From Candidatus Rokuibacteriota bacterium (GTDB lineage Bacteria > Methylomirabilota > Methylomirabilia > Rokubacteriales > CSP1-6): a DNA stretch of 64,000 nucleotides. The stretch spans positions 28,611-92,610 of the forward strand of contig JACPCW010000110.1 in assembly GCA_016184365.1 (NCBI GenBank), given 5' to 3'. The translations under genes and the position numbers were made by a program. The notes under the pieces were generated by a model. That model ran no database searches. It worked only from the letters and a program-made list of their open reading frames with translations, and was not told the DNA's origin. Numbering within the stretch: the first letter of the stretch is position 1; every line of letters starts with the position of its first letter. Shown piece by piece: positions 28,003 through 40,298 of this stretch.

Positions 28003-31000
28003 TCAACCCGGCGGCACGTCGAGCTCGCGAGCGACCTGGCCGGTCCGGGCGACCCACGCGGGCAATCCGAGCCCGGTGAACAGCGCGCGCGCCGCGCACA
28101 GGTGCTCCGCGGCGTCGTCGCGTCCTCCGGCAGCGTGAGCGAGCCTCGCCAAGTCCAGGTGGGTCCGACCCACCTCCAGCCCGGCCTCGACGGCGGCGAA
28201 GATCGCGAGCGCCTCGCCGATCCGGGCGCGGGCGTCGGACAAACGTCCGCGCGCCTGCGCGACCCGACCCAGCCCCCGCTCGGCCCAGCCGCGCGCGTAA
28301 CGGTAGTCCACTTCGCGCGTGCTCCGGATCACCTCCACCGCCGCGGCGTGGGCGTCGTCGAGCCGTCCCTCGAGCCGATAGGCGTCGGCCAGCATGGCGA
28401 GGAACAGCCACTGCGGACGCTGCGCGCCGAAGCCCCGGCCGAGCGTGACGGCCTCTTCCAGCGTCGCCACCGCGCGCGAGACGTCACCGGCTTCGAGCAG
28501 AACGTAGCCGAGCGCAGCGATGGCGTTGACCCGGCCCACCGGATTGGGCGCGCTCGCCAGCGCGCGCTCGCAGAGGGCGACGGACGCCTCCACGTCGCCC
28601 TCGGCGGCCGAGATCCAGCCGAGCGTCCACAGTCCGTAGCTTTCGAGGTGCGCATCGGCGAGCGCCGCGCCGGTCTCGAGCAGGCGTCGGCCCGCCTCGC
28701 GCGCGGCCGTGAGCTCACCGAGCAGCGTCTGGTGGACGGCGACGATCCAGTGCGAGAGGCCAAGCCACCACCGCTCGTCGGTCCGCTCGAGTCTCGTCGC
28801 GGCCGCACGACCGTGCTCGGCACCGCTCCTGAGCGATCCCGTGAACAACGCCTCCTGGGCGAGGAGGAAGAGCGCCTTGCCCGCCGTGACGTCGTCGCCG
28901 CACCGCGTGGCTTCCTCGAGCGCACGGCGGGCGCACGCCACGGACGCCCCGTGGTCGCCGAGGACGCCGCGCATCCGGCCGAGGAGGAAGTAGTACGGCG
29001 CGGTCGCGGCGGGATCGGCCAGACGCTCGACGCGTGGCCCTGCGCTGACCAGCAGCTCGACGCTCGTGGCGATGCGCCCCAGGAAATAGTGCGCCTGGGC
29101 CAGGCGGAGAACGAGCGGGACGTAGCGCCGGTCCCGCTCGTCGGCTGCGAGGCGGTCGGTGCGGCGGAGAGCTTCCTCCATCGAGCTCACCGCGTCGGCG
29201 AGCGCGTAGCTCCGGGTCGCCCGATCGGCGAACCGGGTGAGGTACTCCACGGCCTTGGCCTCGTCCGTGGTGCGGGAATAGTGGTACGCGAGCTGGTCGG
29301 CGACCTCGTCCAGGCGCTGCCGGTTGAGCGCTTCGAGCGCGCGGGCCACCGCGGCGTGGAGCATCTGGCGCTTCGGCTTCAGCACGCCCGCGGCGATCAC
29401 CTGGCGGATGCGGTCGTGGGTGAAGTCGAATCCATCCCCGGCACCGTGCAGGATGCGGCGTCGGACCAGCTCCTCGATGCCTTCCGCAGCCTCCGACTCC
29501 GCGCGCCCGCTGGCGCGCTGGAGCAACGGGAACTCGAACTCGCGGCCGATGACCGCCGCCACCGCCGCGAGCTCCCGCCCGCGGTCGCTGAGCCGCTCCA
29601 GGCGGCTCGCGGTCAGGGCCCGCACGCTGTCTGGAAGCGGCGCTGGCGCCGCCGAGAGTGCCGAGGCCGTGCGGTCGGCGAGCGCGCGCACCATCTCGAC
29701 GATGACGAACGGGTTGCCCTCACTCACCTGCCAGACTCGTTCTCCGAGTCGGGCGATGGTCTCGGCGTCGCCGCCCACCCGGCTCAGCGAGCGTACCAGG
29801 CGCGCGGTGTCCTCGGCGGAGAGCGGGGCCAGCGGCAGCGGAGTGAAGGACGCCTCGCATCCGAGCTCGTCCAGGATGTTGCGAAGCAAGGGGCCGCGAT
29901 CCAGATCCTCTTCGCGCGCGGTGAGCACGAGCAGCGTTCGCGCGGTTGGCAGTCGCCGGCCGAGGAAGGCGATGAGGCGCAGGGTCATCTCGTCCGCCCA
30001 GTGGACGTCCTCGAGCATCAGGACGAGCGGCTGGGGGGCGGCGAGACGGGAAAGCAGCTGGCCCACGGCCTCGAAGAGCCGGAGGTAATCGTCGCCGGGC
30101 GAAGGGAGGCCGGGGACGGCGACCTCGGGCAGCACGCGGGCGAGCTCGCTACGCCAGACCGGTTCGAGGGCGTCGAGCAGCGCCTCGTCGGCGACGACCT
30201 GGCCGGTGCGGAAGGCGTCCACCCAGGGGCCGAAGGGAAGGATCTGCTCGCTCTCGTACGACCGGCCGAGGAGCACGCGGGCACCCCGGTGTTCGGCCTC
30301 CGCGGCGAGGGCGCGCACCACGGTCGTCTTGCCGACGCCGGCCTCGCCCACGATGGCGACGACTCGCCCGCGACCCCGTTGCGCCTCGTCGAGCGCGTTG
30401 CGGAGCGTCACCAGTTCGGCGGCGCGGCCGACGACGGGCGTGTCGGGCGTGACGCCGTCCCCGCGCATAGCGGCGGCCGGCAGACGTGCTGGCTCCCGGC
30501 TCCAGGGTGACGCACGGGGAGCGAGACCCTCGGGCCGCCGCAGGATCTCCTGATAGAGCTCGCGGGTCTCCGCCTCCGGCTCGGCCCCGAGCTCGCGATC
30601 GAGCACGCTTACACAGACCTGGTACTGCCGCAATGCGGCCCCGCGCCGCCCCTGGCGCGCGTAGAGCCGCATCAGCGCGCGATGGACGGCTTCCTGGAGG
30701 GGATCGAGCGACAGGAGCCGGGAGGCGACCACCACGGCGCGCTCGGTCGACCCGGCCTTCGCGTGGAGCGCGAGGAGCTTCGCGAGGGTCTCGAGCGCGA
30801 GCTCGCGTAACCGCTCGCGCTCGGCGAGCAGCCACTCCTCGAAGCGCGGCTCATTCACCGCGAGGCCTTCGAGCAGGTCACCCCGGTAGAGATCGGCGGC
30901 CTCCGCGAGCGCCTCGGGGGTGCCGGCCGTGACGCACCGCTCGAACCGGACGACGTCGACGTCCAGCGCATCGGGATCGACGGCGAAGCCGGCGGAGTCG

Positions 31001-31236
31001 GTGCTCACGAGCCGGGCCGTGCGGAGCGAGCGGGCGGCGTGGCGCAGGCTGTCGCGCGCCTGGATGTCGCCGGCGTCGCCCCACAGCAGGGCCGTGAGCT
31101 TGTCGCGGGGATGGCGCTGGCCCGGGTGGAGGGCGAGGTACGCGAGGAGCGCCCGGGCCTTGGCGGGCACGGCCACAACGTCTCCGGTGGGGATCCGGAG
31201 CGCGAAACCACCCAGCAGCTCGAGGCGGAAGGTCAT
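28003..31236 (-). CDS. SARP/AfsR-family transcriptional regulator (wHTH + BTAD + NB-ARC ATPase + TPR)
   Basis: 1077 aa starting MTFRLELLGGFALRIP. Walker A ..IVGEAGVGKTT... C-terminal TPR-like region. Confidence 0.85.
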   Translation of the reverse strand: MTFRLELLGGFALRIPTGDVVAVPAKARALLAYLALHPGQRHPRDKLTALLWGDAGDIQARDSLRHAARSLRTARLVSTDSAGFAVDPDALDVDVVRFERCVTAGTPEALAEAADLYRGDLLEGLAVNEPRFEEWLLAERERLRELALETLAKLLALHAKAGSTERAVVVASRLLSLDPLQEAVHRALMRLYARQGRRGAALRQYQVCVSVLDRELGAEPEAETRELYQEILRRPEGLAPRASPWSREPARLPAAAMRGDGVTPDTPVVGRAAELVTLRNALDEAQRGRGRVVAIVGEAGVGKTTVVRALAAEAEHRGARVLLGRSYESEQILPFGPWVDAFRTGQVVADEALLDALEPVWRSELARVLPEVAVPGLPSPGDDYLRLFEAVGQLLSRLAAPQPLVLMLEDVHWADEMTLRLIAFLGRRLPTARTLLVLTAREEDLDRGPLLRNILDELGCEASFTPLPLAPLSAEDTARLVRSLSRVGGDAETIARLGERVWQVSEGNPFVIVEMVRALADRTASALSAAPAPLPDSVRALTASRLERLSDRGRELAAVAAVIGREFEFPLLQRASGRAESEAAEGIEELVRRRILHGAGDGFDFTHDRIRQVIAAGVLKPKRQMLHAAVARALEALNRQRLDEVADQLAYHYSRTTDEAKAVEYLTRFADRATRSYALADAVSSMEEALRRTDRLAADERDRRYVPLVLRLAQAHYFLGRIATSVELLVSAGPRVERLADPAATAPYYFLLGRMRGVLGDHGASVACARRALEEATRCGDDVTAGKALFLLAQEALFTGSLRSGAEHGRAAATRLERTDERWWLGLSHWIVAVHQTLLGELTAAREAGRRLLETGAALADAHLESYGLWTLGWISAAEGDVEASVALCERALASAPNPVGRVNAIAALGYVLLEAGDVSRAVATLEEAVTLGRGFGAQRPQWLFLAMLADAYRLEGRLDDAHAAAVEVIRSTREVDYRYARGWAERGLGRVAQARGRLSDARARIGEALAIFAAVEAGLEVGRTHLDLARLAHAAGGRDDAAEHLCAARALFTGLGLPAWVARTGQVARELDVPPG

Positions 31237-31286
31237 GACCGGGCAGTCGGAACTATAGATTGATCGCCCTGCCTCCCTTCCGCGCA

Positions 31287-31317
31287 TTTTTCCGGTGCGA
31301 TTCCCAGGTTTTTCCGG
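31287..31317. promoter_or_regulatory. direct repeats TTTTTCCGG x2 at 22-bp periodicity in divergent promoter (candidate SARP-binding site)
   Basis: tttttccgg at 31287-31295 and 31309-31317, lying between the SARP start (31236) and the small ORF (31341). Confidence 0.35.
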
Positions 31318-31340
31318 CTCGGCCCGGTACAAGGGGCGCC

Positions 31341-31532
31341 GTGACGTTCATCGTCCGGCTGTCCAGCGACGCCGCCGGCCGCGTCACCGGCATCGTCGAG
31401 CGCGTCAGGAACGGCCAGAAGGAACGCTTCGAGGGGCTCGAGGGCCTGGCGCCGGCGCTCGCGCGGATGGCGCGGCCGGAGGACTTCGCGCCGGCCGTCG
31501 AAGGGACCCGAACGGAAGGAGAACTGCGATGA
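31341..31532 (+). CDS. small hypothetical protein (63 aa) coupled to collagen-like gene
   Basis: GTG start with AAGGGG RBS-like sequence upstream. Stop overlaps the downstream ATG (ATGA). Confidence 0.3.
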
Positions 31533-32902
31533 GCACGACCCGCACCTGGCACACCACGATGGTTGTCGGAGCACTGATCGCGCTCACCGCGATGATGCTC
31601 GCGCCCGGCGGCGGAGCGCGGCCCCACGTCGCCTTCGCGCATGGCGGCGATGCCGGCGTCATTCACGCCTGCGTCCAGCAGGGCAGCCAGCAGGTTCGCA
31701 TCGTCGGGCCCGCCGAGAGCTGCCGCGGTCCGGAGACGGCGGTGCACTGGTCGATTGTCGGACCGATCGGCCCGGCGGGTCCCGTCGGCCCGGCCGGGCC
31801 TCAGGGGCCTCAGGGACCCAAAGGCGACAAGGGCGATCAAGGCGCGACGGGGCCGCAAGGTGTCGCCGGGCCGGTGGGACCGGCAGGCCCGCAAGGACCG
31901 ACGGGATCCACCGGCGATACCGGGCCGCAAGGATCTCAGGGTGTGGCGGGGCCGTCGGGTCCCGCCGGCCCGGCCGGGCCGCAGGGTGCGAAAGGTGACA
32001 GGGGCGACCCCGGTCCGGTCGGGCCGCAAGGACCTCCAGGTCTGTCGGGCACGTTCGTCGGCGATGTCACCACGGTCGAGGACACGGCGCTCGGCACCAT
32101 GACCGATACGAGCCGCGTCACCGTGACGATCGGTGGCATCGGGACTTTCACGCCGGTCGCCATGTCCAGGATCGGCTTCGACGTGGCCGTGGTCGAGTTC
32201 GACGCGGCGGGAATCTGGCGCGAGTTCGGTCCCGGGATCGTCACGCCCCGAAACGTGACCTTCCGAGGGCTGGTTGGCTCGTCGCCGAGTTCGGCACTCG
32301 ACGGCTGGGTCAGGGACGTTGCCGACGGTCGAGTCGACCGGAGGGACATCACCCTCACCGTGGCGAGCAAGGGGACGACAACGTTCCAGCTGATCTTGCA
32401 GAACTGCCTCCCGATCGCATCCCAGCCGTTCGCGTTCGACGCTCTCGATCCGAACCTCACCTACGGCGAGCTGACCGTCACGCTCCAGGCAATCGAGATC
32501 GTGACGTTCGACCTGCCTCCCGTTTCGGCTCGCGCACTGGTGCAGGCCGATCGGGGAAACGATGGATGGGTCCAGCTGGCGGCCGGTGGGCTCGAAGGTG
32601 GTGCGATCACGATCGATCCTTCGAGCAAGAGCGTCACGCCCATCAGGCTGACATCGGTCACCCCGCTCGCCGGAGAGGGGCCGCCAGCGTTCCTCCTGTG
32701 GCTAGCGGACCTCGTCGAGGGGAGCCCGACCGCGGTCACCGCCTCGGTCCTGGTGAACACCGTGGCCAAGGACGGCTCGGTGGAGCCGCGCCTCTCGTAC
32801 GTGGACGTGTTCCCCACGCGGGTCACGTTCTTCAACCCGCTCCGGCCCGACGACCTCGGGGTCACGATCGACGTGACCCTGCAGGCCAACCGGATCCCCT
32901 GA
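31529..32902 (+). CDS. secreted collagen-like protein with two C-terminal phage-tail-tube (T4 gp19 / eCIS tube)-like domains
   Basis: GGAAGGAGA RBS. Signal peptide [30 protein letters not shown]. About 35 uninterrupted G-X-Y triplets. Then two tandem ~140-aa domains matching the tail-tube pattern (..[29 protein letters not shown]..; ..[25 protein letters not shown]..). Confidence 0.8.
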
Positions 32903-32933
32903 CGCCCCGGGGCCGCCGACGAGGAGGCGTGTC

Positions 32934-35900
32934 ATGACGCTGTGGAGCACCGTCGTCCGGACCGTGATCGCGTTCCTCCGCCCGGGGCTCGCCGCGCTGG
33001 TCATCCTCGGCGTCGCGGTCTTGGAGCCTCCTGCCGCCTTCGCCGCCGCGATCGTCGTCACCACGCTCGACGACGGGATGAACAGCGACGGCGACTGCTC
33101 GCTGCGGGAGGCGATCACCGCTGCCGACACGAACGTGCCGGTGGACGGCTGCCCCGCTGGCAGCGCCTCGTCGATGGACACGATCACGTTCGCGGTCGGC
33201 GGGACGATCGCGCTCGGCGCGGCCCTCCCGGACATCGCCGACCCGGCCGGGGTGACCATCGACGGCTCCGGGGCCATCGCGATCACCGGCGGCGCGGGCC
33301 GGATCGTGAGAGTGCTGCCGTGCGCCCGGCTCGACCTGCACGGGCTCGTCGTGACCGAGACGGTCGGCGACGCGGTCCTGAACGACGGCCACCTCTCGGT
33401 CGTCGACACGGTCTTCCGCGGCACGAAGGGCAACGCGATCAACACCACGGGGCCCACGAACGTCAGCGGCAGCCTCTTCGCGAGCAACGGCCGCGGCATC
33501 TCGGCCAACCGAGCGACGGTGAGGATCCTGAGCAGCGCGTTCACCGACAACCAGGACGGCTTCTACGGCGCCTCGGCGCTCTGGGTCACCTTCAGCACGG
33601 TGACGATCGCCCGGAGCACGTTCACCGACAACCGCGGCGGGGAACGCGGCGCGATGCTCCTCTACGGGAGCACCGCCACGATCACCGACAGCACGTTCCG
33701 GAACAACCGGGCGTACCGGCAAGACATCGACGCGCGCGGGGGCGCCATCGAGAGCTCGGGCACGACGCTCGTCGTCGCCGGCAGCACGTTCGTCGACAAC
33801 TATGCGTTGTATGTCGGGCTCAACGGCGCCCACGCCCGGGGCGGCGCGCTGCACGTCGACCACGGCGCGGTCACCGTGAGCAACAGCACGTTCGTCGCCA
33901 ACCTGGCGCTGGCGTACAACTACAACGGGTTCAGCCGCGCCTTCGGCGGCGCCATCCAGACCAGGGGAGGCTCCGGCACCGTCGACCTCGTCAACTCGAC
34001 CTTCGCCGATAACCAGGCGCGGAGCCACTCCGGCTCGAGTGAGCCGCGCCCCGACCTGAGCGCCGGCGGCACGATCCATCGCGAGGGCCTGACCGTGACG
34101 CTCCGGAACACGCTCGTCGCCAAGGCCCTGGACGGTACCTGGGACGCGGTGCCCGCCTGCTTCGGCGCGCTGGTGGACGGCGGCGGCAACCTCTCGAGCG
34201 ACGGAACCTGCCCGGGCCTGCACGCCGACCCGCTGCTCGACCCGGCGGGGCTCGAGGACAACGGCGGTCCCACGGAGACGATCGCGCTCCAGCCGGGAAG
34301 CCCGGCGATCGCGGCCGGCGTCGGCGCGACGTGCGCCGCCGCGCCCGTGAACGGCGTCGACCAGCGCGCCGCACTGCGGCTCTCCTGCGACGTCGGCGCG
34401 TTCGCGTACGCGTCGGCGGCGCCGCCGGTGTCGGCGCCCGACGCCCTGCCTCCGCTCCCGGCTCAGTCCGGGTGTCCCGTCTTCAACCAGCCGCCGGTCG
34501 TCACGAACCCGGGCGACCAGACGAGTGCCGAGGGCGGCGCACCGTCGCTCCAGATCGGCGCGAGTGACCCGGACGGTGACGCGATCGGCTACGCGGCGGT
34601 GGGCCTGCCGCCCGGCCTGGCGATCGACGCCGCGACTGGCCTCGTGACGGGGATGCTCGGCTACGATGCGGCCGGCTCGTACGGCGTGACCATCACCGTC
34701 ACCGACGCGCGCGGGGCCAGCTCGAGTGTGAGCTTCACGTGGGCGGTGACGGACGTGAACCGTCCGCCGGCGGTCACGAACCCAGGGAGCCAGACGAGCG
34801 CGGAGGGGACGAGCCCCTCGCTGCAGATCAGCGCGAGCGACCTCGACGCAGACGCCCTCACGTACTCCGCGACGGGTCTGCCGCCGGGGCTTGGCATCGA
34901 CGCGGCGACCGGGCGCATCGCCGGCACCCTCGGCTACAGCGCGGCCGGTACGTACGCGGTGACGGTCAGCGTCAGCGACGGCAGCGGCGGCTCGGCCTCG
35001 GTCTCGTTCACGTGGACGGTCGCCGACATCAATCGCGCGCCGATCGCCCGGGCCGACTCGGCGACGACCGTCGAGGACACGCCCGTCACCGTCAACGTGC
35101 TGGCCAACGACGACGATCCCGACGGCGACGCGCTGACCGTGCTCGGCGTCGCGCAGCCGTCGCGCGGGACCACGCTCCTGAACGCCGACGGCACCGTGAC
35201 CTACGTCCCGGCGTCGAACTTCAACGGGTCCGACGGCTTCAGCTACACGATCCGCGATGCGCTCGGCGCCACGGCGACGGCGACGGTGACGCTCCAGGTG
35301 ACGCCGGTGAACGATCCGCCGACGCTCGCTCCGATCGCCGACCAGACCCACACGGTGGGCCAGGCGGTCACGCTCGATGTCGTCGCCGCGGACGCCGACG
35401 GCGACGGCCTGAGCTTCACGGCCACCGACCTCCCGGCCGGCATCACGGTGAATCCCGCGACCGGCACGATGTCGGGCGTGCTGCAGGCGCCGGGCGCGCA
35501 CCAGGCGACGGTGACCGTGTCCGACGGCAACGGCGGTCGCGCCAGCGCGTCGTTCCGCTGGAGTGCCGTCACGGCGAACCGGCCGCCGGTCTGCACGGCG
35601 ACGGCGAGCCCGTCGGTGATCTGGCCGCCGAACCACAAGCAGAAGGTCGTCGTCCGCCTCGTGGGTGTCGCCGATCCCGACGGCGACCCGGTCAGCGTCA
35701 CCATGACCGGCATCCTGCAGGACGAGCCGACCAACACGCTCGGCGACGGCGAGACGTGGATCGACGGCGGTGGGGTCGGGACCTCGGAGGCGTGGGTGCG
35801 CGCCGAGCGCTCGGGAACGCCGCGCGTGCCTGGTAACGGCCGGGTCTACGAGATCCTCTACAGGGCCGAGGACGGTCACGGCGGCTCGTGCACGGGTTCG

Positions 35901-36011
35901 GCGCTGGTCGGCGTGCCCCACGACCAAGGCAAGGGGCCGGCGATCGACGACGGCATCCGGTACGATTCGACGGTCGCGGGAGGCCCGCGCGCAGTGCGTC
36001 CTACCAGATGA
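32934..36011 (+). CDS. large secreted adhesin-like protein (CSLREA motif, beta-helix repeats, 4x putative Ig domains, cadherin-like domains)
   Basis: GAGGAGG RBS. Signal peptide. ..DGDCSLREAITAAD... Repeated N-S-T-F/beta-helix motifs. Four ..GLPPGL.IDAATG.. Ig repeats. ..VLANDDDPDGDALTV... Confidence 0.8.
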   Translation: MTLWSTVVRTVIAFLRPGLAALVILGVAVLEPPAAFAAAIVVTTLDDGMNSDGDCSLREAITAADTNVPVDGCPAGSASSMDTITFAVGGTIALGAALPDIADPAGVTIDGSGAIAITGGAGRIVRVLPCARLDLHGLVVTETVGDAVLNDGHLSVVDTVFRGTKGNAINTTGPTNVSGSLFASNGRGISANRATVRILSSAFTDNQDGFYGASALWVTFSTVTIARSTFTDNRGGERGAMLLYGSTATITDSTFRNNRAYRQDIDARGGAIESSGTTLVVAGSTFVDNYALYVGLNGAHARGGALHVDHGAVTVSNSTFVANLALAYNYNGFSRAFGGAIQTRGGSGTVDLVNSTFADNQARSHSGSSEPRPDLSAGGTIHREGLTVTLRNTLVAKALDGTWDAVPACFGALVDGGGNLSSDGTCPGLHADPLLDPAGLEDNGGPTETIALQPGSPAIAAGVGATCAAAPVNGVDQRAALRLSCDVGAFAYASAAPPVSAPDALPPLPAQSGCPVFNQPPVVTNPGDQTSAEGGAPSLQIGASDPDGDAIGYAAVGLPPGLAIDAATGLVTGMLGYDAAGSYGVTITVTDARGASSSVSFTWAVTDVNRPPAVTNPGSQTSAEGTSPSLQISASDLDADALTYSATGLPPGLGIDAATGRIAGTLGYSAAGTYAVTVSVSDGSGGSASVSFTWTVADINRAPIARADSATTVEDTPVTVNVLANDDDPDGDALTVLGVAQPSRGTTLLNADGTVTYVPASNFNGSDGFSYTIRDALGATATATVTLQVTPVNDPPTLAPIADQTHTVGQAVTLDVVAADADGDGLSFTATDLPAGITVNPATGTMSGVLQAPGAHQATVTVSDGNGGRASASFRWSAVTANRPPVCTATASPSVIWPPNHKQKVVVRLVGVADPDGDPVSVTMTGILQDEPTNTLGDGETWIDGGGVGTSEAWVRAERSGTPRVPGNGRVYEILYRAEDGHGGSCTGSALVGVPHDQGKGPAIDDGIRYDSTVAGGPRAVRPTR

Positions 36012-36166
36012 CTTCGACGAGTCCCGAGTGGCGGATATCGGGATCGCGCGACAAGAGCGGCAGGTTCAAATGGCGCGCCGCTGCACAGATCAGGGCGTCA
36101 AATGGATCGCGATTCGGACGGTGCGCGTCGGCGTCGTAGATCTGCTCGGGAGTCAGGTCGAACGAG
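35990..36166. repeat. 172-bp direct repeat copy 1 (3' end of a PIN-toxin gene, minus strand)
   Basis: ~97% identical to 39598-39775. Minus strand encodes ..DPFDALICAAARHLNLPLLSRD.DIR.SGLVEVIW*. Confidence 0.75.
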
Positions 36167-38051: not shown

Positions 38052-38468
38052 TCAGGCGTATCGGCGGACAACGAGCTCGGGAATGCGGTCGTAGTGCCTC
38101 GGATTGCCCGTGACGAGCTCATCGTCGCGGTGCAGCGCCGTACAGGCGATGAGAAGGTCCGACGTCGGCAAACGGCGGCCCTCGATGACGAGACGTGCGT
38201 CGAGCTCGCCGTAGAGTCGCGCGATGGCGAGCGTGAGCGGCACCACCGGGATCGCGGCCAGGATGGCCTCGACGAATTCCGTCCGCCGTGCCCGTCGCGC
38301 CGCCGAATCGGCCCGCCAGCAGCCGTGGACGAGTTCTCCGGCGCTCATCACGGAGAGCGCCAGCTCGACGTCGCCGTACTGGTCGAGCAACCCGGCGATG
38401 ACCGCCTCGGCGGTTTCGGTTCGCCGCTCGGCCGCGACGAAGACGGTCGAGTCGATCAGGAGTCCCAC
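38052..38468 (-). CDS. vapC: PIN-domain toxin
   Basis: MGLLIDSTVFVAAER.. and a C-terminal ..TGNPRHYDRIPEL... Start overlaps the antitoxin stop by 13 nt. Confidence 0.8.
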   Translation of the reverse strand: MGLLIDSTVFVAAERRTETAEAVIAGLLDQYGDVELALSVMSAGELVHGCWRADSAARRARRTEFVEAILAAIPVVPLTLAIARLYGELDARLVIEGRRLPTSDLLIACTALHRDDELVTGNPRHYDRIPELVVRRYA

Positions 38469-38758
38469 GGCGTATGGTCGGACGATTCGGCGGCGATGAT
38501 CGCGAGCAGGTCTGCCCCGAAACGCCCATCCAGCCGGACCGGCACACGGCTTCGGAGAATCTCCAATGCCTGCGAAGCCGTGCGCCCGCGCAAGGGCGGC
38601 GCCGACATGAGGCAGACGTCCTTGCCACGCCGGTGGATGAGGAACTGCGAGCCGCCCTCCACCTCGTCCAGGAGGCGCGCGAACGACCGGCTCGCCTGCG
38701 TCGCCGACAGCCGACCGGCTCGGCGCTTCGGGCGTCGGTGGTCTGATTTCTTCGTCAT
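38456..38758 (-). CDS. Phd/YefM-type antitoxin
   Basis: ..LSATQASRSFARLLDEVEGGSQFLIHRRGKDVCLMS... Confidence 0.65.
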   Translation of the reverse strand: MTKKSDHRRPKRRAGRLSATQASRSFARLLDEVEGGSQFLIHRRGKDVCLMSAPPLRGRTASQALEILRSRVPVRLDGRFGADLLAIIAAESSDHTPWDS

Positions 38759-38871
38759 GAATCTGATTCTAGGGCACGACGGCCGAGGGCACCAGCAGCG
38801 CCTCGCAGACCACCGCCGACGCCATCCTCGGCCGCCTCGGCGGCCTGGACACCGCCAACCTGGACGCGTCC

Positions 38872-39305
38872 GTGTCCTCGTGCGCCTCGCAGGCGACCGC
38901 AGACGCCATTCTCCGGCGGGTCAGCGGCCTCACCACCGCGAACCTGGACATCGCGGTCTCGTCGCGCGCCTCGCAGGCCAGCGTCGACGCGCTGGCGACC
39001 AGGCTCCAGGCGCTCGGCCTGGACGGGCTCGGCGCGCACCTGGACCTGCTCCTGCGCGCGAAGATCGAGGTGGCGCTGGCGAGCGGCGACGCCCGGGTCG
39101 TCCTCTTCTACGCGCCGGCCAGCGCGGGGGGCACCTGGAGACGGTCCGGGCGATCGTGGCCGACGCCGTCCAGATGGCCCGCCAGTCCGGCGTCGACGTG
39201 GGCAAGGCGGAGCGCAGCCTCGCCGGCGGTGATCTCGCGTACGCCGCCGGACGGTACGTGGAGGCGTATGACCGGTTCCGGAGGGCCTACCAGGAGCTCG
39301 ACTAG
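38872..39305 (+). CDS. repeat-containing hypothetical protein with frameshift at a G6 run (~39125)
   Basis: Tandem ~28-aa repeats (ASQ.TADAIL.R..GL.TANLD..VSS). Reading frame shifts at gcGGGGGGcacc into ..HLETVRAIVADAVQMARQSGVDVGKAE..YQELD*. Confidence 0.35.
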
Positions 39306-39401: not shown

Positions 39402-39597
39402 ATGAGCGACGCCGTGAAGCTCGCCGTCGGCCTGACGTACGCGCGATCGGTGATGGCCACAGACGACCTCACCCCGGCGCACCTGCGTGGCGACCCGATC
39501 CGGGTCCTGTCGACGCCCGACATGATCCGGCTCATCGACCAGACGGCGATCGAGGCATCAAATGCGCGACAGCTGGCACATCCTGGCCGCGACACGC
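39402..39597 (+). pseudogene. hotdog-fold thioesterase 5' fragment
   Basis: MSDAVKLAVGLTYARSVMATDDLTPAHLRGDPIRVLSTPDMIRLIDQTAIEA resembles a FlK/PaaI-like N-terminus. Truncated at repeat copy 2. Confidence 0.35.
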
Positions 39598-39775
39598 GCA
39601 GTGCGTCCTACCAGATGACTTCGACGAGTCCCGAACGGCGGATATCGGAATCGCGCGACAGTAGCGGCAGGTTCAAATGGCGCGCCGCTGCACAGATCAG
39701 GGCGTCAAATGGATCGCGATTCGGACGGTGCGCGTCGGCGTCATAGATCTGCTCGGGAGTCAGGTCGAACGGTTG
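39598..39775. repeat. 172-bp direct repeat copy 2 (3' end of intact PIN-toxin gene)
   Basis: See 35990-36166. Confidence 0.75.
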
Positions 39776-40009
39776 ATACGCCGGACTGCTGAAGAGGTCG
39801 GCGCAGAATTCGCCGAACGACCGCTGCAGGTCGACCCGATTCGCCGACGCGAGCAGCGAGCACTCCCACAGCACCGCGACGGGGACGTAGACGACCGCGG
39901 CCCGACGTTCCGCCGCCTCGAACACCGCGGCGGCGCGTCGTCCGAGTCGGCGACTCGCGGCAGCGTGAAACAGCAAGGGATGCGTGTCGGTGACGGCCGC
40001 TTCAACCAC
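39608..40009 (-). CDS. PIN-domain toxin
   Basis: GTG start overlaps the antitoxin stop (GTGGTTGA). ..VTDTHPLLFHAA.. and a C-terminal ..DPFDALICAAARHLNLPLLSRDSDI... Confidence 0.7.
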   Translation of the reverse strand: MVEAAVTDTHPLLFHAAASRRLGRRAAAVFEAAERRAAVVYVPVAVLWECSLLASANRVDLQRSFGEFCADLFSSPAYQPFDLTPEQIYDADAHRPNRDPFDALICAAARHLNLPLLSRDSDIRRSGLVEVIW

Positions 40010-40298
40010 GCGCCGTCTTTCGCTTCCGCGCGGGCTCGATGCGGGGCCCGCGGCCGGTCCGGAACAGCGCGCGGACCAGCGCATCTGCGCGCGCCAGTGA
40101 CGGATCGCCGCTCACGATGCGAATCGTCCCCTTCACGGATCGACGGGGCGCATCGGGGGCTCGGATTCCGGCGCGTGCGTCGGCGATAAGCCGGTCGAGC
40201 GTTTCGCTGACGCTCCGATGCCGGGCCGCGCGGCTGCGCCCTCGGAGCCACAGGAGGTTGTCGTCGCGAAGGGTGACGGAAATCGCCTGCTTCGGCAT
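40002..40298 (-). CDS. ribbon-helix-helix-type antitoxin
   Basis: MPKQAISVTLRDDNLLWLRGRS..SVSETLDRLIADARA. Confidence 0.5.
   Translation of the reverse strand: MPKQAISVTLRDDNLLWLRGRSRAARHRSVSETLDRLIADARAGIRAPDAPRRSVKGTIRIVSGDPSLARADALVRALFRTGRGPRIEPARKRKTARG

Follow-up and report, generated by a model that had tools for sequence, protein, structure and literature searches.

The 64-kb window analysed here (64,000 nt of contig JACPCW010000110.1; G+C content of ~71%) belongs to a metagenome-assembled genome (MAG) of a soil bacterium, Candidatus Rokubacteria. The locus in question consists of three closely packed open reading frames (ORFs) on the plus strand, spanning positions 31341–36011 (Table 1). 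Its central gene, the main subject of this study, encodes a protein that combines a signal peptide, a collagen-like region, and two tandem domains related to the tube proteins of extracellular contractile injection systems (eCIS). It is preceded by a small ORF and followed by the gene for an adhesin-like protein with its own signal peptide; a regulator gene lies divergently on the other side of the small ORF. In the public NCBI annotation, the central protein is a “collagen-like protein” (MBI2206371.1) and the adhesin-like protein a “tandem-95 repeat protein” (MBI2206372.1), both encoded on a contig of 101 kb. The gene layout given by a first-pass annotation of the same DNA, in which the small ORF is joined to the central gene through an ATGA overlap and a short gap separates the latter from the third ORF, was confirmed at every position. 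The gap measures 31 bp and contains GAGGAGG.

Table 1. Features of the collagen–tube locus and its flanks, in window coordinates
Feature	Position	Strand	Basis or remark
BTAD + AAA_16 (STAND-type) + TPR regulator, SARP/AfsR-like	28003–31332	− (divergent)	Pfam
Small ORF, 63 aa	31341–31532	+	GTG start; stop/start overlap ATGA 31529–31532
Central collagen-tube protein, 457 aa	31529–32902	+	ORF call
Predicted Sec-type signal peptide, aa 1 to ~37	31529–31639	+	n-region R5, hydrophobic h-region, AFA cleavage motif; hydrophobicity scan and direct reading
Two-cysteine motif ahead of collagen	31658–31759	+	Sequence comparison
Collagen-like region, 33 uninterrupted G-X-Y triplets, aa 78–176	31760–32056	+	Regular-expression count
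Tube-fold domain A, aa ~197–327	32117–32509	+	Homologous to eCIS tube proteins Pvc1/Afp1
Tube-fold domain B, aa ~336–457	32534–32899	+	Diverged duplicate of A; ends in a 10-residue family motif
Adhesin-like protein, 1025 aa	32934–36011	+	ORF call
Truncated 3′ PIN/VapC remnant, ~54 codons	35988–36164	−	Shares 24 nt with the 3′ end of the adhesin gene, stop codon included

The N-terminal hydrophobic peak of the central protein reaches a Kyte–Doolittle value of 2.38 at residue 11, and the AFA motif follows it. The two-cysteine motif is common to the collagen-bearing relatives P0003, P0010, and P0017 and to a paralogue in locus L005 (see below), and no Pfam or NCBIfam model matches it. The collagen-like region scores 56 bits against PF01391 (cut-off 27.2; E 3.5e-15) and thus passes the Collagen model that had been named as a check. 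Both the signal peptide and the collagen region were already recognised in the first reading, although the longest G-X-Y run comprises 33 triplets, not about 35. Judged by its sequence, this repeat is long and regular enough to form a triple helix. Since the rise of a collagen triple helix is 0.286 nm per residue, the 99 residues would measure ~28 nm. G-X-Y tracts of this length make obligate trimers.

Tube-fold domains of the central protein

The C-terminal 282 residues that follow the collagen region are not recognised by Pfam, and the PHROGs and PADLOC collections gave no tube or defence match on the central protein. However, a single-sequence phmmer search against the PDB sequences matched Pvc1 of the Photorhabdus virulence cassette (E 2.7e-4) over nearly the full Pvc1 length. 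When a profile of 12 family sequences was used, the PDB matches were exclusively eCIS tube proteins, i.e., PlPVC1, Pvc1, Anabaena All3324, those of the Streptomyces contractile injection system (CIS) and AlgoCIS, and Pvc5. Some of these matches cover profile positions 19–135 and others positions 146–254, the latter being the domain B half (8bl4_v and 7adz_1a), so that both halves are tube-like. Domains A and B are also detectably related to each other (hhalign probability 93%, E 2.8e-7), indicating an internal duplication.

The AlphaFold2 (AF2) model of the two-domain part has a mean predicted local distance difference test score (pLDDT) of 83.8 and a predicted template modelling score (pTM) of 0.82; the ~20-residue linker between the collagen region and domain A was modelled with low confidence. 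In a Foldseek search against the PDB, the top 22 matches were all tube-family proteins of CIS, type VI secretion systems (T6SS), or phages, with a best E value of 4.8e-6 and a target TM score of 0.72. Hcp structures were among the fold matches. A third line of evidence is transitive. The family profile aligns with that of a family of tandem tube proteins over 201 columns in the same domain order (hhalign probability 99.7%, E 5e-26), with domain B falling on the second domain of this PF06841 family. These tandem proteins pass the PF06841 gathering score, and so does P0017 (38.1 bits versus 28.2), a relative built like the central protein, with collagen.

Since sequence profiles, structure prediction, and transitive homology concur, the C-terminal half is assigned, on sequence and model, to two tandem tube-family domains, as had been proposed from conserved blocks in the first-pass annotation. 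Of the checks suggested there, the structural one returned the tube fold (AF2 and Foldseek), whereas the curated tail-tube models PF06841 and TIGR02241 remained below threshold. A generic β-sandwich resemblance was considered and rejected, given that the profile matches only tube proteins and that the link to the PF06841-positive family is as strong as stated above.

By descent, the central protein belongs to the eCIS tube superfamily, and its tube fold is detectable by profile. It shares the fold, with recognisable homology in both domains, with Pvc1/Pvc5, Afp1/Afp5, AlgoCIS, and Streptomyces CIS tube proteins. An eCIS tube subunit has ~149 residues, compared with ~130 for domain A and ~120 for domain B. 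Unlike eCIS tubes, the central protein has its two domains fused, carries a signal peptide and a collagen stalk, and is encoded apart from sheath, baseplate, and spike genes. As far as its sequence tells, it thus fails three hallmarks of a tube protein: the score against the curated models, the CIS gene context, and, through the predicted signal peptide, the cytoplasmic location.

The gene context was read from genes sampled across most of the 64-kb window, and the absence of an injection system at the home locus rests on these. They belong to metabolic and regulatory families only, including glycogen GH57 enzymes, GlgC, an aminotransferase, luciferase-like monooxygenases, TRAP and ABC transporters, amidohydrolases, and a xanthine-dehydrogenase-type enzyme. 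Genes for a sheath, a baseplate, or a spike do not occur among them, and a tube-profile search of the ORFs in the window revealed no second tube-like ORF; the earlier statement that such genes are missing nearby therefore holds.

Relatives, export signals, and origin

When 1.84 billion representative proteins were scanned exhaustively with HMMER, only 20 family members were recovered at E ≤ 1e-3. A word-indexed search, using the C-terminal half and the 12-sequence profile, returned only the central protein itself and P0015. The relatives occur in several layouts. P0003, P0010, and P0017 have every element of the central protein, from the signal peptide and the two-cysteine motif through the collagen to the double domain; P0007 has the collagen and the double domain, its sequence beginning just before the collagen. 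In P0002 and P0015, EGF-like modules take the place of collagen. Seven relatives (P0009, P0012, P0013, P0016, and P0018–P0020) are bare tandem proteins that lack a stalk and contain two or three tube domains, and the complete ones among them have a signal peptide. Overall, 11 of the 20 representatives show a clear N-terminal hydrophobic signal, and most of the other nine appear to be truncated at the N-terminus or to start inside a domain.

A scan of the GTDB genomes with the tandem family yielded 13 loci, all of them in MAGs, from Chloroflexota/Anaerolineales, Planctomycetota, Acidobacteriota, Hydrogenedentota, and Verrucomicrobiota. With the collagen-type alignment, the same collection, to which the source genome itself does not belong, gave no match, and a metagenome scan recovered only the P0003 locus again. 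Most proteins of the tandem loci have Sec signals, and two from Anaerolineales carry RRxFLK twin-arginine (Tat) signals (L016, 9737–10864; L018, 564–1628). A Tat signal implies that the tube-fold protein is folded before it is exported. Almost every complete relative has a signal of one of these two types. These collagen-free, exported tandem tube proteins (P0009, P0012, P0013, P0016, P0018–P0020; L013, L016–L021, L023, and L025) are the closest true family of the central protein. They share with it the Sec or Tat signals, the orphan context, and the profile similarity described above, but they lack the collagen stalk, have two or three tube domains, and pass PF06841.

Two further kinds of arrangement were observed. 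P0017 has a tandem paralogue next door, and one metagenomic contig (L005, 9605–13176) encodes adjacent paralogues of 528 and 592 aa, both with collagen and double-tube domains; such a pair makes hetero-trimers or mixed assemblies conceivable. In other loci, the tube domain is fused to different modules. L015 (8642–10783) and L022 (6–3704) have N-terminal YD/RHS-like repeats, and in L024 (9026–11074) a tube domain is followed by HEAAHVxQQ motifs that resemble, by eye, the eCIS_core/DUF4157 motif. From these sequences, fusions of the tube fold to other modules seem to be frequent beyond the canonical tube genes.

Sheath, baseplate, and spike genes are absent from the loci of P0003, P0010, P0017, P0002, P0015, P0012, P0009, and L013, and IMG/VR, the INPHARED phages, and the PLSDB plasmids contain no relatives, for which reason a phage or plasmid origin of the present gene was rejected. 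These results bear on whether the central protein might serve, as tube, tube initiator, or fibre, in a contractile injection system or prophage tail whose genes are located in another part of the genome. It indeed belongs with the eCIS tube proteins by fold and sequence family, phage fibres often contain collagen-like repeats, and the genome beyond the window could hold an eCIS. Yet the Sec signal peptide conflicts with cytoplasmic assembly, the gene is an orphan in the window as are its relatives in these eight loci, and phage, plasmid, and viral-contig relatives are lacking. Moreover, the covalent fusion of domains A and B and the collagen stalk do not occur in the one genuine eCIS locus of the set, L014. 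We therefore attach very little probability to such a role.

L014 encodes a Pvc16_N protein, a sheath, an eCIS_core protein, and three tube genes. Two of the latter are adjacent and encode 149 aa each; the first corresponds to domain A of the tandem family and the second to domain B (60% identity in the best-matching segment). The A–B order of the central protein is thus that of two neighbouring eCIS tube genes. Sequence comparison suggests that this arrangement likely represents the ancestral state, from which neighbouring tube paralogues were later fused and exported. Adjacent eCIS tube genes would first have fused, an export signal would then have been gained, and a collagen stalk may have been added in one branch.

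A putative exported stalk-and-ring fibre

We consider the chances slightly better than even that the central gene encodes an exported fibre protein with a stalk and a head, acting outside contractile injection systems. After Sec export, three chains would zip into the ~28-nm collagen triple helix, from which the flexible linker of ~20 residues leads into the tube-fold domains, A then B, as assigned by homology and modelling. The linker appears long enough for three chains to converge on a ring axis, and the six tube domains of three chains with two domains each could close into one pseudo-hexameric ring. A single ring is expected because collagen is an obligate trimer, each chain has two tube domains, and tube-family domains form six-membered rings. 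The same 3-to-6 symmetry is used by gp27/VgrG hubs, which are pseudo-hexameric trimers. The product would be a trimeric stalk topped by a ring-shaped head, located in the envelope or at the cell surface and laid out like BclA or C1q, and its most likely role, by analogy, would be that of a structural or adhesive envelope appendage.

Known proteins provide precedents for both halves of this architecture. The tail-tube protein pb6 of phage T5 has a tandemly duplicated tube domain, which enables its trimer to build a pseudo-hexameric ring (PMC5717097). The central protein shares this duplication and adds an obligate-trimer module, the collagen. It differs in that pb6 polymerises around a tape-measure protein in a phage tail, the ring proposed here being a prediction. 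With BclA of the Bacillus anthracis exosporium, Scl1/Scl2 of Streptococcus, Lcl of Legionella, and C1q-type proteins, the central protein has in common an uninterrupted G-X-Y stalk, a globular non-collagen domain, and a signal peptide. Unlike these, it has no LPXTG motif, and its head is a tube-fold pair and not a C1q/TNF jelly-roll or V domain. It matches the NCBIfam equivalog models for Lcl (69 bits, cut-off 500), SclB (68.5 bits, cut-off 325), and SclA (57 bits, cut-off 400) with its collagen part only and falls far short of all three cut-offs. In the proposed reading, it would work much as bacterial collagen-like surface proteins do, but with a different type of head.

An alternative use of the same parts is that rings stack extracellularly into a sheath-less tube or a daisy-chained filament, i.e., a conduit, with the collagen along the axis as a built-in tape measure. 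Tube-family proteins stack head to tail, a collagen helix of ~1.5 nm would fit into a lumen of ~4 nm, and the tandem paralogue beside P0017 makes mixed assemblies conceivable. Still, one ring ~4 nm in height per 28-nm stalk cannot make a continuous tube, three N-terminal linkers meeting on the axis would cap one ring face, and there are no initiator, terminator, or sheath genes among the sampled window genes, which makes stacking highly improbable. In a wider formulation, tube-fold rings have been freed from the contractile machine, are exported through Sec or Tat, and assemble outside the cytoplasm without sheath, baseplate, or tape measure. The collagen would then act as an axial core that organises trimers into hexamers to give an extracellular filament, cap, or conduit, and the non-collagen tandem relatives from at least five phyla would be a simpler version of it. 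This broader proposal appears decidedly unlikely.

The exported ring might also serve for binding or as a decoy and not as a structural fibre, for example by capturing incoming tube-borne effectors or spikes of CIS or T6SS in the envelope, or by holding a small cargo in its lumen like Hcp. Hcp rings bind effectors in the lumen, and Hcp is found among the fold matches; collagen-free tandem tube proteins with Sec or Tat signals are distributed over at least five phyla, pointing to a general role of the ring itself in the envelope. However, no conserved partner gene was seen in any inspected locus, the PADLOC defence models have no match, and such a function is regarded as improbable.

Several observations also weigh against the stalk-and-ring fibre itself. 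The trimer and the ring are what we infer from domain arithmetic, and the biological role is a guess by analogy. On the central protein, PF06841 gives no match at E ≤ 1, and TIGR02241 (“phage tail region protein”) reaches only 12.7 bits (E 0.08) against a cut-off of 62.4. In the fold searches, no PDB chain, known tandem tube proteins included, superposed on both domains together. The central protein has no anchor motif (LPXTG, lipobox, or sorting tag), so that the periplasm, the surface, and the medium are all possible destinations. The source genome was read over the 64-kb window, and the absence of an injection system refers to the genes sampled there.

To our knowledge, tube proteins such as gp19, Hcp, and Pvc1 have been described solely from phage tails, T6SS, and eCIS, where they assemble in the cytoplasm, and we know of no description of exported tandem tube-domain proteins without collagen. 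A literature search found nothing on collagen–tail-tube fusions, on PF06841 combined with collagen, or on Sec- or Tat-exported tube proteins, in agreement with the initial remark that the protein fits no described context. The exaptation of tube domains is real and unannotated; the public label “collagen-like protein” hides the tube domains, and such exaptations are currently invisible in annotation. If the present reading is correct, a tube building block has taken on a second function as a module exported to the envelope or surface, in a rare, unannotated family that is spread over several phyla, all of them represented in this analysis by metagenome assemblies only. It also suggests a design rule, by which an obligate trimer with two tube domains per chain should yield a six-fold ring, an attractive prospect for protein-nanotube engineering.

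Neighbouring genes and the edge of the locus

The small ORF has a coding-like G+C content by codon position (0.75/0.53/0.88) and belongs to a Rokubacteria-type family of 57–63 aa, of which eight homologues with 62–77% identity were found, residues 1–43 being almost invariant. Its predicted fold is β-β-β-α (AF2 pLDDT 79), and a fold search against the PDB gave no significant match. The divergent regulator has a longest ORF of 1109 aa, its true start likely being MTFRLELLGG at 31236. Pfam identifies BTAD (97.8 bits, E 9.6e-28), AAA_16 (113.3 bits, E 2.2e-32), and several TPR families, and the domains follow the order BTAD, AAA_16 NTPase, and TPR repeats. The score against the AfsR equivalog model is 89.7 bits, below its cut-off of 1430.

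The regulator and the small ORF recur together. In the P0028 locus, a 1114-aa regulator of the same BTAD-AAA-TPR architecture lies directly upstream of the small-ORF homologue; in the P0026 locus, the divergent neighbour is a 419-aa TPR protein, and a 1097-aa BTAD-AAA_16 regulator is located two genes further upstream. In two further loci, P0025 and L009, a cut, divergently oriented gene precedes the small ORF. Wherever it is visible (the window, P0025, P0026, and P0028), the small ORF overlaps the next gene by 4 nt. In P0025, P0026, and P0028, this next gene encodes a short-chain dehydrogenase (adh_short), and none of six collagen/EGF-tube loci has the small ORF or a CSLREA adhesin beside the tube gene. 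The small ORF thus appears to partner the regulator and promoter region, not the collagen-tube gene. Because the small ORF is coupled to a dehydrogenase elsewhere and the tube relatives have neither the small ORF nor the adhesin, the conserved unit appears, from these neighbourhoods, to be the regulator with a leader ORF, behind which the cargo is interchangeable. Such a recurring Rokubacteria-type locus, known from soil metagenomes, would place a BTAD-STAND regulator and a conserved leader ORF ahead of exchangeable cargo genes.

The first-pass annotation had instead treated the three genes as a candidate secreted module. In a dedicated module of this kind, the small ORF would be a chaperone or assembly factor, the collagen-tube protein a fibre, and the CSLREA/Ig protein a tip adhesin or partner. 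In favour of such a module, the three genes lie on the same strand, are joined by the ATGA overlap and by a short gap in which GAGGAGG could serve as a ribosome-binding site, and show no terminator-like site between them in the scan; both large proteins have signal peptides. As a conserved unit, however, the module did not stand up to the comparison of loci just described, and the fresh vapC remnant at the right-hand edge (see below) points to a recent local rearrangement. A dedicated module is accordingly unlikely. The link between adhesin and tube gene is, on gene neighbourhoods, specific to this genome. As to expression at this locus, the central gene follows the conserved small ORF, with the BTAD-AAA-TPR regulator in divergent orientation, and it probably shares a transcript with the adhesin gene. 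Promoter, terminator, and Rfam scans of the locus found nothing.

The adhesin-like protein matches three curated NCBIfam models, all above their cut-offs (in brackets) as the suggested choice-of-anchor/CSLREA check had anticipated: CSLREA_Nterm TIGR04214 with 32.7 bits (25), choice-of-anchor Q NF041518 with 45.8 bits (25), and tandem-95 NF012211 with 135.2 bits (90). Pfam adds Beta_helix, He_PIG, Big_9, and Cadherin_4/5. The CSLREA motif, β-helix, and cadherin-like domains of the original description were thus recovered, with three He_PIG stretches in place of the four repeats counted there.

The PIN/VapC remnant at the end of the adhesin gene is one copy of a 177-nt direct repeat, 97% identical, whose copies lie at 35988–36164 and 39595–39771, as detected by a repeat search, blastn, and translations. 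The second copy, 3.6 kb away, forms the 3′ end of an intact PIN/VapC toxin gene (39608–40084, minus strand). The sequence of the remnant suggests recent recombination, insertion, or rearrangement at the right-hand edge of the locus. Toxin–antitoxin-like genes, PIN/VapC-type by translation, and their small upstream partners cluster downstream (38052–38758 and 39608–40084) and separate the locus from the next metabolic genes. Within this region, an apparently frameshifted gene on the plus strand (~38770–39305) may be a pseudogene, an assembly error, or a case of programmed shift. Its first part is coding-like, with a G+C content at third codon positions of 0.98, and contains two tandem repeats of 84 nt (28 aa) at 38798–38965 that are 75% identical and follow the pattern ASQ.TADAIL.R..GL.TANLD..VSS. 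A frame switch near 39120 reaches a plausible C-terminus ending YVEAYDRFRRAYQELD.

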